A stretch of 64,000 nucleotides of DNA from an uncultured candidate division Zixibacteria bacterium (GCA_963668625.2 CAXXKA010000001.1:160001-224000), one strand, 5' to 3'; shown: positions 12,902-55,047, counted from the stretch's first letter. Translations and numbers: made by a program. The notes: generated from the sequence alone by a model not told the origin.

Positions 12902-13276
12902 ATGAAATGCTTTTTCCAGGGAGTTGTTAGAGACAACAATATCGAAACCCAGTTCAACAGCTTTGTAAGTTTCATCATACCCGAGCTTGGAATCAATTTC
13001 CGAGGCCAGTTTAAAGGCGACTATGAGGAATGCGAGTACGCCAGCCTTCTGGCCCTCCTGGAGTTCATTGAATTAAACAATCATCTCTTCAAAGATAAAC
13101 GAATCGAGATACTTGGCAATAACTACAGCGTAATCAGCCAGGTCAACTCGGTCGAGGAGCCCTCCACGGATTTGGAGCCGTTATGCAGTCTGGCGCAAAG
13201 CTATAAGAAGAAATTCCCGTTTATCCTGGACTGGATTCCTACCGAAGAAAATATGGCTCAGGATCGCTGGGTGTAG
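12902..13276 (+). CDS. Degenerate RNase HI-like protein
   Basis: CEYASLLALLE, IEILGNNYSVISQVN and WIPTEENMAQD resemble RNase HI motifs AEYxAL, GDSxLVxxQV and WIPRExNxxAD; AAGGAGG RBS. Confidence 0.65.
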   Translation: MKCFFQGVVRDNNIETQFNSFVSFIIPELGINFRGQFKGDYEECEYASLLALLEFIELNNHLFKDKRIEILGNNYSVISQVNSVEEPSTDLEPLCSLAQSYKKKFPFILDWIPTEENMAQDRWV

Positions 13277-13344: not shown

Positions 13345-13372
13345 TTGACTAAACTCAAATACATGTTATATT
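13345..13372 (+). promoter_or_regulatory. Sigma-70 promoter (probably the original carboxypeptidase promoter, now upstream of the IS)
   Basis: TTGACT-N16-TATATT with extended -10 TG. Confidence 0.6.
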
Positions 13373-13448
13373 TAAGTAGGGTAGAGAACTTAAGCTTCAT
13401 AGAAATGGTTTATTTAATTGGAAACAAAGGAGATGGTACGATAAAAGC

Positions 13449-13668
13449 ATCTTGCTAATCTATTCTGTTGGTGTTAGAGCTTCGGTAATGAATTTCTAAC
13501 TGGAGCGGATAGGTTATAGGCTGAACTGAATGCTTGAGGCCAGACCTCGTAAAGGAGATTAATCAGACCTGTAACCGAATTGCCACCATAAGGCAAAGAC
13601 CTTGAATAGGAGTTTGGTAGGCGCCGACAGAGAGTCTGCTCCAGTGATAACCATAGAATGGAGCAAGA
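13449..13668 (+). ncRNA. Candidate IS110 bridge RNA (target- and donor-binding loops)
   Basis: Stems 13499-13510/13634-13645 and 13512-13520/13568-13576; loop segments AAAGGAGAT (13551-13559, equals target), ATAGGAG (13606-13612) and ACCAT (13585-13589) matching the donor junction. Confidence 0.72.
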
Positions 13669-13670
13669 AG

Positions 13671-14684
13671 ATGAGGTACTTAGGAGTAGACCTTCACACA
13701 AACAGTTTGACCGTGTGTTACCTGACAGCCGGTGGTCGGGAGAGGATCAAGGAGTATCGGCTAAAGGATCTAAAGGAATTTAAACGAGGATTAAAAAAGA
13801 CGGATTGTGTAGCGGTTGAGGCCACTGGCAACACTCGTTATTTCGTTGATGAGATATCGCATTTGGTCAAGCGAGTTGTTGTCGTCGATCCGAACAAATT
13901 TGAGATAATCAAATCATCAGTCAGTAAGACGGATGAAAACGATGCCAGGAACTTAGCCTATTTTATGAGCAAAGACATGTTGCCGAAAGCCCGATTAAAG
14001 ACGAAAGATAAAGCGCAGATCAGTTCACTTGTTGGGACACGGGACAAGCTGGTCAAGTTACGTACAGCTTTGAAGAATAAAATACACAACATACTCAATC
14101 ATCATGGTATCAAGAGTAAAAAGGAGGCCTACTCCAGCAACAAGAGTTTGGAGCGGGTTCTAAAGATGAATTTTGATGAGGTTGTTTCTGTTGAGCTTGA
14201 GGTATTGGTTGATCAGATTCGCAGTTTGAATGAGGGGATAAAAAAGCTGGACAAACAGATAGAGGATCAGGGTCGCAAGTTGAACGGGCATAAGAACCTG
14301 ACCAGCATCAAAGGAATCGGCAGCAAATCAGCTACAGTGTTGCTTTCGGTAATTGGTGATGTTGCTGATTTTTCGGACAAAGATAAATTGGCCTCATATT
14401 TTGGCGTAGTGCCGCGAGTTTCCAATTCAAACGAGATTCAGCATCATGGTCGGATTACCAAGCGTGGTTCTAAGATTGGTCGGACTACACTGGTGCAGTG
14501 TACGCTTGTTGCCATACGATATAACCATTACTTGAGTAAATATTACAATCGTATAAAAAACCGTCGTGGCAGCGGTAAGGCTATCATTGCCACAGCCAGA
14601 AAATTACTGGGAATAATCTATGACACCTTGAAAAATAATTGGGTGTTTGAAGATTTCCCTAACTTTGTGTTAGCAAACAGATAA
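13671..14684 (+). CDS. IS110-family transposase/recombinase (DEDD + Transposase_20)
   Basis: MRYLGVDLH, VAVEATG, KTDENDA DEDD motifs; SIKGIG HhH; PRVSNS...GRITKRG; KAIIATARKL; GGAG RBS at 13660-13663. Confidence 0.95.
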   Translation: MRYLGVDLHTNSLTVCYLTAGGRERIKEYRLKDLKEFKRGLKKTDCVAVEATGNTRYFVDEISHLVKRVVVVDPNKFEIIKSSVSKTDENDARNLAYFMSKDMLPKARLKTKDKAQISSLVGTRDKLVKLRTALKNKIHNILNHHGIKSKKEAYSSNKSLERVLKMNFDEVVSVELEVLVDQIRSLNEGIKKLDKQIEDQGRKLNGHKNLTSIKGIGSKSATVLLSVIGDVADFSDKDKLASYFGVVPRVSNSNEIQHHGRITKRGSKIGRTTLVQCTLVAIRYNHYLSKYYNRIKNRRGSGKAIIATARKLLGIIYDTLKNNWVFEDFPNFVLANR

Positions 14685-14721
14685 CTGAAATTTGGAGTAG
14701 ACTTTTATCATAGGAGATGAA

Positions 14722-16980
14722 ATGAAAAAATATCTATTGTTCGCGGTTGCTTTTAGCCTGATGCTTTCAGCATCCGCCATACATGCAAACGAGAATCCCT
14801 CATTGTTGCATGTTTACTTAATGAATAAAACCGATGTTATGAAGCTGGCCGATATGCCTCTGGATATTCCTTATTATACAGAGGATTATGTCGAGGTAGT
14901 TGCTTATAGTGATGATATCGCGGAAATAGCCGCGGCCGGATTGCATTATGATATAGTGCAGGAAGATATGGTTAGTTTCTATCAACAACGCAACCCGGTG
15001 ATTACCACGATGGGCGGATACCTGACCTATAGCGAAGTAGTGGACTCTCTTGATATGCTTCATATGCTTTATCCTGAACTGGTCTCCGAGAAATTTTCGA
15101 TCGGCCAGAGCTGGGAGGAGCGCGATCTGTGGGTGATCAAGGTTTCGGATAATGTCGATACCGATGAGGATGAGCCTGAGATTTTCTACAATGCATTAAT
15201 TCACGCTCGCGAACCTGCAAGTATGGCCTGGCAACTGAATTTCCTTTCCTGGCTTCTGGAAAATTATGGCATAGATGATGATGCTACCGAAATTCTGGAT
15301 GGACGTGAAATCTGGTTCCTGCCCGTTTTTAATCCGGATGGCTACGAATATAACCGTCAGACCAACCCTAACGGCGGCGGCATGTGGCGTAAAAACAGAC
15401 GTTCCGGTGGCGGAGTTGACTTGAACCGTAACTGGGGCTACATGTGGGGCTATGATGATGACGGCTCTTCGCCTTATTCCAGTGATGAAACCTATCGAGG
15501 CCCGGCGGCGTTTTCGGAACCCGAGACTCAAGCTGTCAGAGATTTCATTACCGGCCGCGATTTCAGTTTCATTATAAACGCGCATACTTATGGCAACTGG
15601 TGGTTGTATCCTTACGGCTATGATGATATTTATACTCCCGATCAGTCGATTTTCAGCGCTATCGGCGACTCCGTCGAAACGTTGACCGGTGGCGATTACA
15701 GACCCGGTACCGCCTGGGAATGTTTATACAATACCAATGGTGATGCCAACGACTGGCAGTACGGCGAACTCGGCCTGTTTTGTGCCACCCCCGAAACCGG
15801 CAATTCCTCGGATGGATTTTGGCCGGCGTCGTATCGTATAAATCCACTTAACGCCCAGATGTTACCCGTAGCTATCTATATCGCTCAGATTGCCGGAAAT
15901 GTCGAGACAATCTCGGCGCCGACCGCGCCCGTCTTGAACCCCATCGGCCAGCTCGATACATCATCGTATACCGTAAGTTGGACGCATGAGGATGAGGATA
16001 ATCCGGCTGTGGCTTATGAACTGGTCGAGAAATCGGGATATCTCAGAACCGAAGACGATATCGAATCGGGTGATGGTTTGTGGGAGTTCGATGGTTACGG
16101 AATCAGTACCAGCCGTTATCACTCCTCTAACCATAGTATATTTTCCGGGAATGAGAACTCATACCACGGCAGCGCTATTTTGGCTGATGAGCTGAACGTT
16201 TTAGATGATGACACTCTGTCGTTCTGGGTTTGGTTCGATGTCGAGGAAGATTTCGACTATGGCTATGTTGAAATTTCCACCGATGGCGGGGCTATTTTCA
16301 CACCGATCGAGGGAAATATAACCACTAATTACGATCCTAACGGCTCCAACCGGGGTAATGGTATAACCGGCTCCTCCGCAGGTTGGATCGAGGCCTCGTT
16401 CCCGCTGGATGCTTACGCCGGTATGTCCGTCCAGATCAAATTCAGCTATGTTACCGATAGCTGGATGCTGGAGAGTGGTATATATATAGATGATGTTTAC
16501 CCGATTGAGACTTTCGAAAGCGAGATGGTTCTGGCCTCGGATATTGCAGATAACTTCTACGATATAACAGATCGGGAAAATGGTACTTATTTCTATCAGG
16601 TCCGGGCGAAAGATGCCGAGGATCAATGGTCGGGATTCTCCAATCGCGAGGCCGCTATTGTTGACGCTAACGTATCAATAGATGATAACAATCAGATTCC
16701 GGCCGAATTTAACCTGGCGCAGAATTACCCAAATCCGTTTAATGCCAGCACCGAAATTAGTTTTGCTTTATCGAGCGCCGGTTACATTACTCTCGAGGTT
16801 TACGATATCGCCGGCAGATTGGTAAGAACTCTCCTGAGCAGCGATATGACGGCAGGCGATCATACCGTAATATGGAACGGCTCGAATGATAACGCCGAAT
16901 CGGTTTCTTCCGGCATATATTTCTATAAGCTCACGACCGATCAAAAATCGGAAACCAGGCGGATGACCTTACTCAAGTAA
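14722..16980 (+). CDS. M14 zinc carboxypeptidase (carboxypeptidase T-like) with InhA-like/Fn3 modules and T9SS-like CTD
   Basis: Signal peptide, IHARE, NPDGY, WRKNR, GVDLNRN, FSEPET, NAHTY; QNYPNPFN...SSGIYF...RMTLLK. Confidence 0.93.
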   Translation: MKKYLLFAVAFSLMLSASAIHANENPSLLHVYLMNKTDVMKLADMPLDIPYYTEDYVEVVAYSDDIAEIAAAGLHYDIVQEDMVSFYQQRNPVITTMGGYLTYSEVVDSLDMLHMLYPELVSEKFSIGQSWEERDLWVIKVSDNVDTDEDEPEIFYNALIHAREPASMAWQLNFLSWLLENYGIDDDATEILDGREIWFLPVFNPDGYEYNRQTNPNGGGMWRKNRRSGGGVDLNRNWGYMWGYDDDGSSPYSSDETYRGPAAFSEPETQAVRDFITGRDFSFIINAHTYGNWWLYPYGYDDIYTPDQSIFSAIGDSVETLTGGDYRPGTAWECLYNTNGDANDWQYGELGLFCATPETGNSSDGFWPASYRINPLNAQMLPVAIYIAQIAGNVETISAPTAPVLNPIGQLDTSSYTVSWTHEDEDNPAVAYELVEKSGYLRTEDDIESGDGLWEFDGYGISTSRYHSSNHSIFSGNENSYHGSAILADELNVLDDDTLSFWVWFDVEEDFDYGYVEISTDGGAIFTPIEGNITTNYDPNGSNRGNGITGSSAGWIEASFPLDAYAGMSVQIKFSYVTDSWMLESGIYIDDVYPIETFESEMVLASDIADNFYDITDRENGTYFYQVRAKDAEDQWSGFSNREAAIVDANVSIDDNNQIPAEFNLAQNYPNPFNASTEISFALSSAGYITLEVYDIAGRLVRTLLSSDMTAGDHTVIWNGSNDNAESVSSGIYFYKLTTDQKSETRRMTLLK

Positions 16981-25133: not shown

Positions 25134-25345
25134 GAAACAGGAGTAGTTACTTAGTTCTAAATTGGCTGTAGCGTCAGAAATCTTTGATTTCAAATGGGAT
25201 GTCACCGGGAAAGAATGCACAGAGAACTTCATCCCTCCCGGTGACTCGTGAAATAGACTTTTTCAACAATCCCAGCGCTTCACACCGAGGATGTAGAGGG
25301 TAGTTACTTCATTTAAGTTATTAACTTATCCGTAAAGGAGTAATT

Positions 25346-54974: not shown

Positions 54975-55047
54975 TAAACCGTAAGTATCATGGAAAACTT
55001 GCGAAACTCTATAACTTTAAACTAATACCATAAGCAAAGGAGAAACG

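Follow-up and report, generated by a model that had tools for sequence, protein, structure and literature searches.

The stretch of DNA analysed here (the window) comprises 64,000 nucleotides, C1:160001-224000, of the 4.30-Mb, 10-contig genome of an uncultured candidate division Zixibacteria bacterium, and contains an insertion sequence (IS) of the IS110 family lodged in the Shine-Dalgarno (SD) sequence of a gene for a secreted M14 carboxypeptidase. Very probably this element is RNA-guided, its guide matches the SD, it enters SDs in the sense orientation to the gene, and it leaves an SD behind for the gene it has hit. A preliminary description of the locus had proposed an IS that inserts into SDs and rebuilds the ribosome-binding site (RBS); its observation is confirmed overall and its interpretation supported, with the boundaries corrected as set out below. 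The principal features of the locus are the following.

13345-13372, + strand: host promoter-like TTGACT-N16-TATATT with a TG extension, 10/12 consensus matches, pointing to the SD, the element and the peptidase gene
13426-13432, + strand: left target half, the host SD AAAGGAG (LT-7..-1); (A/T)AAGGAG precedes 11/11 copies, and empty orthologous sites have a single SD
13429-13432, + strand: shared core region GGAG, within the left target half
13433-14716, + strand: IS110-family insertion sequence, 1284 bp with the shared core counted in the right end, delimited by copy comparison
13671-14684, + strand: transposase/recombinase gene, 337 amino acids (aa), PF01548 5.6e-13 and PF02371 5.4e-22, with its own GGAG at 13660-13663
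14709-14716, + strand: right end CAT-AGGAG, identical in 11/11 copies
14712-14716, + strand: AGGAG, the SD left for the downstream gene; the 5-nt spacer to the ATG at 14722 is host sequence
14722-16980, + strand: host gene, a 752-aa open reading frame (ORF) for a secreted M14 carboxypeptidase with MAM-like and type-IX-secretion sorting domains, from ORF call and domain search

As first described, the start codon of the peptidase at 14722 lies 5 nt past the right AGGAG, and the gene keeps its SD at the same spacing after insertion through the CAT-AGGAG right end, the base preceding AGGAG having changed from A to T. Removal of the element yields the reconstructed empty site GGAAACAAAGGAG-ATGAA-ATG, which has a single SD and is the same under either parse of the boundaries. 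The promoter-like hexamers are present as the preliminary description had them, and a consensus scan of the + strand between 13433 and 14722 found no terminator-like site, in line with its remark that none separates transposase from peptidase; promoter and terminator calls in this work are consensus matches only and not proof of function.

Boundaries and copies of the element

Comparison of the 11 copies in the genome, eight of which are 100% and three 99.92% identical over 1276 bp, delimits the element precisely. The constant part of the junction alignment runs from ATGGTACGAT... through ...TTTTATCATAGGAG, placing the element start at ATGGTACG... and its end at ...TTATCATAGGAG. In 11/11 copies the left junction reads (A/T)AAGGAG followed by ATGGTACG, and the right junction reads CATAGGAG (CAT-AGGAG), followed by 5-7 nt and an ATG, while the right host flank differs at each of the 11 sites. 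The window copy alone has AGGAGATG at both 13428-13435 and 14712-14719, a direct repeat of 8 bp, since the 'ATG' after its right AGGAG consists of host bases that are replaced in the other ten copies by T or A plus unrelated bases. Across the 11 copies the two junctions have only AGGAG in common. Thus the preliminary description, which set the extent at 13421-14724 on the strength of a longer repeat, was right that a repeat flanks the element, but the true element occupies 13433-14716 and the true repeat is 5 bp rather than 8. Identical short pieces in metagenome contigs of four other studies stop at 13426 and 14716, as is usual for assemblers at repeat borders; these contigs leave the host flanks uncovered and show no empty allele of a near-identical strain.

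Just inside the ends lies a short inverted repeat (left-end bases 6-14 against right-end bases -13..-5), whose two arms co-vary across relatives and of which the left arm is given here.

13440-13446, + strand: left arm of the subterminal inverted repeat, GATAAAA, the complement of TTTTATC (14703-14709)

Relatives with a GGGAG right end keep AAGGAG at the left junction, and the strand exchange point therefore lies within GGAG.

Several further observations concern individual copies. The element's own DNA holds two AAAGGAG motifs, one guide-coding (13551-13557) and one in the transposase gene (14120-14126), which are potential self-targets and are hit in 0/11 copies. Copy C10:184847, whose downstream ORF is 34 aa long, follows non-coding repeats of ~205 nt (L005 1-1500, C10:183334-184846) that contain inverted repeats of the form cctcaggatg...catcctgagg; the 1.5 kb upstream of this copy is free of ORFs of 90 codons or more. 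A diverged copy in a wetland metagenome occupies another site, with a left flank of ...GATAAAGATGT followed by AAGGAG, and its right junction is followed by an ATG and a plausible signal-peptide-like start.

Occupied sites are ribosome-binding sites

All 11 copies are oriented in the sense direction to the downstream gene, with the ATG situated 5-7 nt past the right AGGAG, and in 9/11 copies this ATG opens an ORF of 116-758 aa. That AGGAG really is the SD of this organism follows from the 3' end of its 16S rRNA, GGATCACCTCCTTTCT, together with the spacing between WAAGGAG and the start codon of ORFs of at least 80 aa, which peaks at 5-8 nt (counts of 66, 72, 52 and 44) against 4 to 10 at 2-4 and 10-13 nt. 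The preliminary description had suggested mapping all copies and looking for enrichment just before start codons, and such enrichment is indeed found. Among sites of the form [AT]AAGGAG[AT], the 11 occupied ones are all RBS-like, whereas the 468 unoccupied ones divide into 105 RBS-like and 363 others (Fisher p 1.2e-7), and for the best-matching octamer, AAAGGAGT, eight sites are occupied, while of the unoccupied ones 22 are RBS-like and 75 are not (p 2.1e-5). The wider set of 829 unoccupied [AT]AAGGAG sites comprises 161 that are RBS-like, 27 at an ATG with a short ORF, 187 that are intergenic and otherwise placed, and 454 under long ORFs (at least 100 aa). The AAAGGAG motifs that had been pointed out at two other RBSs of the window (25334-25340 and 55036-55042) are present but carry no weight, the window containing 14 WAAGGAG against 14.7 expected by chance.

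Occupied sites also differ from other RBS-like sites in their surroundings. T is found at +1 in 9/11 occupied sites against 20% of RBS-like WAAGGAG sites, and the AT fractions of the 12 nt upstream and 8 nt downstream are 0.82/0.89 at occupied sites, 0.68/0.70 at other RBS-like sites and 0.59/0.58 at the rest, in a flank comparison that is exploratory, with thresholds picked after the data were seen. Unoccupied sites with similarly AT-rich flanks are RBS-like in just 39% of cases.

An internal control is afforded by another element of the IS110 family, unrelated to the first, of which the genome has five copies of ~1.47 kb with 98.5-99.9% identity (G000 C1:623595, C4:59867, C5:24687, C6:581509 and C8:131303; L116-L120). 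Its left flanks end in ...CAG/GAA-like bases beside palindromic sequence, its Tnp motif reads GRITRIGK, and none of its five copies has an SD at the junctions; the SD association is therefore specific to the SD-targeting element.

Empty sites in related genomes

An empty allele in related genomes, which the preliminary description had named as a further check, is found in two congeners, G001 and G002. At the peptidase locus both have the same arrangement with a single SD and without the element (ggcaaAGGAGacgtgATG in G001 and gcgAAGGAGttgtaATG in G002), and both keep the promoter hexamers. At a second locus (own copy C8:555117) a single SD without the element is again seen (ttaaaaAGGAGaaaaatATG in G001, taaaaaAGGAGtcaggagATG in G002), so that the predicted single SD is present at 2/2 comparable loci in the two genomes, while a third locus (copy C6:631133) has no DNA-level match in G001 or G002. 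Being only ~71% identical to this genome, the congeners show the state of the orthologous site and not the exact pre-insertion allele. A search of 40 related genomes did not find the element in 39 of them; the other, G006, from another genus of the same family, has pieces of both ends with 82% identity, the same right end being followed by gag...ATG.

The recombinase and its family

The recombinase combines an N-terminal RuvC-like DEDD domain (PF01548, DEDD_Tnp_IS110, 5.6e-13) with a C-terminal Tnp domain (PF02371, Transposase_20, 5.4e-22), and scores 242.7 bits against NF033542, 'IS110 family RNA-guided transposase', for which the cut-off is 140. Chains of the IS621 and ISCro4 transposases in the PDB are matched over the C-terminal domain with E ~1e-12; the D..E..D..D residues are aligned, and the segments LGVDLH, VEATGN and SKTDENDA align with the ISCro4 chain. 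By its sequence, 13433-14716 thus appears to be an autonomous IS110-family element encoding an RNA-guided DEDD recombinase and its bridge RNA. Outside the clade formed by this element and its relatives, the best plasmid IS110 transposases, beyond a match in Tardibacter, are only ~33% identical, and the clade is therefore distinct. No long antisense ORF of the hed type exists inside the element, the largest antisense ORF being 75 aa. In some relatives (L059-L064, L073 and L077 from Robiginitomaculum; L115 2236-2238 from a Tardibacter plasmid) the transposase stop codon TAG falls within the terminal CATAGGAG, and the gene reaches to 3 nt from the element end.

A bridge-RNA-like structure and its guides

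Upstream of the recombinase gene the element has a non-coding left end of 238 nt, with a predicted fold of -81 kcal/mol and a z-score of -5.84 versus shuffled controls. For comparative analysis, 80 related loci with recombinases 52-64% identical were collected from single-species genome representatives. An alignment of the RNA core, comprising 47 distinct sequences, reveals four helices with compensatory changes and two internal loops, each with one single-stranded segment on its 3' side.

13502-13643, + strand: core of the bridge-RNA-like non-coding RNA, from the fold and compensatory pairs in 47 distinct sequences
13502-09 with 13635-42, + strand: outer stem, compensatory changes
13512-23 with 13564-76, + strand: second stem, compensatory changes
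13536-39 with 13545-48, + strand: first hairpin, compensatory changes
13590-93 with 13600-03, + strand: second hairpin, compensatory changes
13551-13559, + strand: left-target-guide-like segment AAAGGAG+AU, identical to the left junction's top strand (LT-7..-1 and then element bases 1-2)
13606-13612, + strand: left-donor-guide-like segment AUAGGAG, equal to the element's last seven bases (LD-7..-1)
13582-13585, + strand: tentative right-donor guide GCCA, complementary to element +2..+5 (TGGT)

Pair 13517/13571, for example, is U-A in 21 sequences and C-G in 18, and pair 13591/13602 is A-U in 28 and G-C in 18. For the second stem RNAalifold prefers another register, because AUAGG occurs twice in the 5' strand, and both registers co-vary. 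Rfam yielded no family for the left-end RNA, its only hit being a chance match to osmY (E 0.88).

The single-stranded segments of the loops resemble the left guides of a bridge RNA. The preliminary description had postulated a guide matching the SD, and one is located at 13551-13559, where it co-varies with the left flank in relatives: among 56 related loci it equals the locus's own left junction at 9/9 positions in 46 and differs by one or two mismatches in the other ten. Variant guides go with variant targets (TTAGGAG, AATGGAG, AGAGGAG, GAAGGAG, TAAGGAG), the element's first two bases being AT or AC, and position 13559 corresponds to the element's second base (RD+2) in 48/48 loci. With its preceding base the segment reads UAAAGGAGAU (13550-13559), and base 13550 shows no correspondence with the flank. 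On inspection by eye, four loci from Acidobacteriaceae have the guide ACACGGAG and are inserted in CCACGGAG, and the Tardibacter plasmid copy has the guide GAAGGAG+CT, a left flank of cgAAGGAG and an element start of CTGG. The second segment, 13606-13612, equals the element's last seven bases in 51/52 loci, and A or G at 13608 tracks right ends CATAGGAG versus CATGGGAG with a frequency of 0.98, against a major-allele frequency of 0.81. The candidate right-donor guide mostly forms 4/4 pairs, with the RD+4 pair seen as G:C, A:U, C:G and T:A, and may be confounded by a possible neighbouring stem (13582-87 with 13616-22), 3/6 pairs of which are well supported.

When right and left ends are joined, a promoter of the sigma-70 type is predicted to arise, its hexamers separated by 17 nt that include the core.

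14698-14703, + strand: TAGACT, -35 half of the junction promoter, consensus hexamer
13437-13442, + strand: TACGAT, -10 half of the junction promoter, consensus hexamer, left-end bases +5..+10

The position of this promoter is kept in 47/48 distinct end pairs, and 42/48 score at least 8/12.

A habit of the whole clade

SD targeting is a property of the whole clade across phyla, beyond this one element. At 49/67 distinct right junctions in relatives, a start codon lies within the next 3-12 nt and begins an ORF, counted as such when it has 60 aa or more or has not closed by the end of the locus; the 67 counted loci are those of the 80 that remain after setting aside ten in which no right end was found and three with flanks too short. 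The 18 exceptions comprise four loci in CACGGAG repeats, 11 with an ATG and a short ORF, and one each of a tandem right end, a false call and a lone TTG with a tiny ORF. Host labels of the 80 loci include Acidobacteriota, Omnitrophota, Spirochaetota, Nitrospira (Nitrospirota), Alphaproteobacteria, Planctomycetota, Verrucomicrobiota, Thermodesulfobacteriota and KSB1, many of them taken from metagenome bins, in which single assignments may be wrong. In cultured Tardibacter, a complete plasmid carries a clade member directly upstream of a gene start.

Two kinds of exception are of note. Loci L089, L097, L098 and L100, from Acidobacteriaceae bins, carry the guide ACACGGAG and sit in runs of CACGGAG-like repeats rather than before genes, with CCACGGAG as left and ACACGGAGGGCACGGAG as right flank; this subclade looks like a natural reprogramming away from the SD. 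At L046 the right end is doubled in tandem (acaaacatcataggag twice) before the host ATG, which may be the scar of a second event at a rebuilt SD.

Proposed mechanism and its alternatives

These observations may be drawn together in the following model. The segment AAAGGAG+AU (13551-13559) would pair with the bottom strand of the target, and AUAGGAG (13606-13612) with the donor junction of a circular form of the element. GGAG is common to target and donor, and strand exchange inside it would insert the element solely in the sense direction of the gene downstream. Both junctions then carry an SD, the host's AAAGGAG on the left and the element's CAT-AGGAG on the right, with the host spacer and ATG untouched and translation of the downstream gene presumably unimpaired. 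Insertion would also split the promoter formed at the circle junction, so that the integrated copy likely depends on the host promoter upstream of the SD. A transcript from that promoter would, with no terminator in between, cover the bridge RNA, the transposase gene and then the host gene. The suggestion in the preliminary description that SDs provide a safe harbour downstream of a host promoter is a hypothesis, the promoter being only a consensus match.

Several results weigh against so simple an account. Two of the 11 copies precede putative ORFs of just 34 and 39 aa. A threonine (GRITKRGS, 14443-14466) stands at the place of the catalytic serine (rmSKAG) of the ISCro4 transposase (PDB 9t56), a homologue of that of IS621; I-T-K is found at the putative catalytic motif in 72/81 clade members. 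The long left guides lie 3' of the hairpins, unlike in IS621, where the left guides are placed 5'. A right-target guide was looked for without success, also on the 5' side of the first loop, and positions 13613-14, which could provide a handshake-type pairing, match the first bases of the right flank in 17/52 loci against 18.2 in shuffles; detectable specificity is therefore only ~7-8 nt. Covariation was counted on related sequences, which overstates independence, and raw mutual information, being mostly phylogenetic, was not used as such. Finally, perfect AAAGGAGT sites are occupied in 8/30 cases when RBS-like and in 0/75 otherwise, a disparity that a guide match of 7-8 nt is insufficient to explain.

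What keeps the other sites empty is where the alternatives part. One possibility is that the guide specifies only (A/T)AAGGAG(T) and that any such site is entered, insertions in genes being purged and those in SDs near-neutral because the SD is rebuilt. The detectable guide/target match of only ~7-8 nt fits this well, as does the fact that 454 of the 829 WAAGGAG sites left unoccupied are covered by ORFs of 100 aa or more and would, if hit, cost the host a gene, and assemblies in any case display only insertions that have persisted. Survivorship must indeed contribute to the emptiness of non-RBS sites, because insertions in genes are lost. As the explanation of the pattern it is nevertheless somewhat unlikely: 187/829 unoccupied WAAGGAG sites are intergenic without being RBS-like and none of these is occupied, the copies are 99.9-100% identical and hence recent, leaving little time for selection, and the AT-rich flanks and T at +1 of occupied sites point to preferences at the insertion step. 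On these same grounds (empty intergenic non-RBS sites, very recent copies, T at +1 and AT-rich flanks) an extra preference during insertion is plausible but unproven. Its more specific form, in which a layer beyond base-pairing (AT-rich melting, transcription or structural read-out) limits insertion to active translation starts, can be put forward tentatively, as rather unlikely. The 8/30 against 0/75 occupancy and the AT-rich flanks speak for it, and a 2026 preprint on the IS110 element ISPpu10 reports a sequence-plus-structure target logic; AT-richness alone is insufficient, however, given that similarly AT-rich unoccupied sites are RBS-like in 39% of cases, and survivorship could supply the remainder.

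Quite differently, a cut-and-paste transposase of loose preference might have produced a conventional target-site duplication, in which case the SD match would be coincidental. The 8-bp direct repeat AGGAGATG flanking the window copy has just this appearance, but across the 11 copies the junctions share AGGAG alone, the same at every site, and in relatives a GGGAG right junction is paired with an AGGAG left junction, so that the two are not duplicates. The protein, moreover, belongs to the IS110 family and is not a DDE transposase, and the association with gene starts has a Fisher p of 1.2e-7. This possibility is barely credible, and was ruled out on the identity of AGGAG at all 11 sites and the GGGAG/AGGAG pairs of the relatives.

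Going beyond the RNA-guided, SD-matching reading preferred here, it can be conjectured that the clade, present in at least ten phyla, has adopted the SD as a universal attachment site, with one guide for any host and a build suited to insertion into operons, and that the restriction to gene starts is set during insertion by a layer beyond the 7-8 nt pairing rather than by survivorship alone. We regard this as an improbable conjunction, offered for discussion. If it were true, the order of parts would be that of an operon insert, namely host promoter, bridge RNA, recombinase gene, rebuilt SD and host gene, and since the SD target is conserved across bacteria a single guide would serve without reprogramming.

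Relation to known systems

The bridge-RNA mechanism was established for IS621 (Durrant et al. 2024, PMC11208160; Hiraizumi et al. 2024, PMC11208158), in which the left target and left donor guides have top-strand sequence and pair with the bottom strand (PMC11208158); non-canonical bridge-RNA architectures are reported in a 2026 preprint (10.64898/2026.10.21.760802). The present element resembles IS621 in its recombinase with DEDD and Tnp domains, its long non-coding left end with a structured RNA and two internal loops, its left guides, which consist of left target plus core and left donor plus core in top-strand sequence with the core common to donor and target, its predicted junction promoter arrangement, and its short subterminal inverted repeats. 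It differs in that the recombinase is only distantly related (PDB match with E ~1e-12), in a shared core that is located inside GGAG, where IS621 has CT, in the absence of a detectable right-target guide, and in the threonine aligned to the catalytic serine. IS621 targets REP-type repeats, whereas the natural target here is the SD.

A precedent for targeting of translation starts exists in IS900, a mycobacterial member of the IS110 family. Doran and co-workers are said to have stated in 1997 that IS900 targets translation initiation signals. Its target motif, CATGNNNNNNTCTCCTT, is the reverse complement of AAGGAGA-N6-CATG, with an SD and a start codon at insertion sites, according to a later report (PMC8141618). 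Both elements thus insert at SD-N(4-6)-ATG sites, yet in IS900, as described, the transposase is antisense to the gene hit and an opposite-strand ORF, hed, borrows the host RBS; here the transposase is sense to the host gene in 11/11 copies, long antisense ORFs are absent, and each junction retains an SD. The literature searched did not account for the targeting of IS900 by a bridge RNA.

In the IS1111/IS110 seekRNA elements a short non-coding RNA matching the target flanks picks the site of each element or group (Siddiquee et al. 2024, PMC11187229). Site choice by such a flank-matching RNA is a trait that the present element has in common with them. Documented seekRNA/IS110 targets are attC sites, transposon ends and REP sequences, unlike the universal translation signal used here. 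Neither this clade nor an SD-aimed bridge RNA is described in the literature searched, nor are IS110 elements that target SDs in the sense orientation, though an earlier description may exist. What is known, then, is translation-start targeting, from IS900, and the bridge RNA, from IS621; what appears to be new is a clade of RNA-guided IS110 elements for which the SD, entered in the sense direction, serves as attachment site.

Such a system would represent a natural bridge-RNA program aimed at a short motif that occurs hundreds of times in any SD-using genome, spares coding sequence and lies downstream of a promoter. Nearly the same guide would explain the spread of the clade across Acidobacteriota, Omnitrophota, Spirochaetota, Nitrospirota, Alphaproteobacteria, Planctomycetota and others, and an RNA-guided mechanism would be on offer for the finding of the 1990s on IS900 and translation-initiation signals. 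For annotation, it means that elements of this kind sit between promoter and gene without necessarily inactivating the gene. For engineering, it provides a natural guide that is short and left-dominated and may point to a second layer of specificity, and the occupancy of 8/30 RBS-like against 0/75 other sites is a directly testable puzzle.

The neighbouring upstream gene

Upstream of the host promoter-like sequence lie the following two features.

12902-13276: upstream ORF, 124 aa, no Pfam match, kept in both congeners at ~71% DNA identity
13305-13327, + strand: terminator-like hairpin and T-run ending the upstream gene, a 10-pair stem followed by TTTTTTGTTT, from a consensus scan

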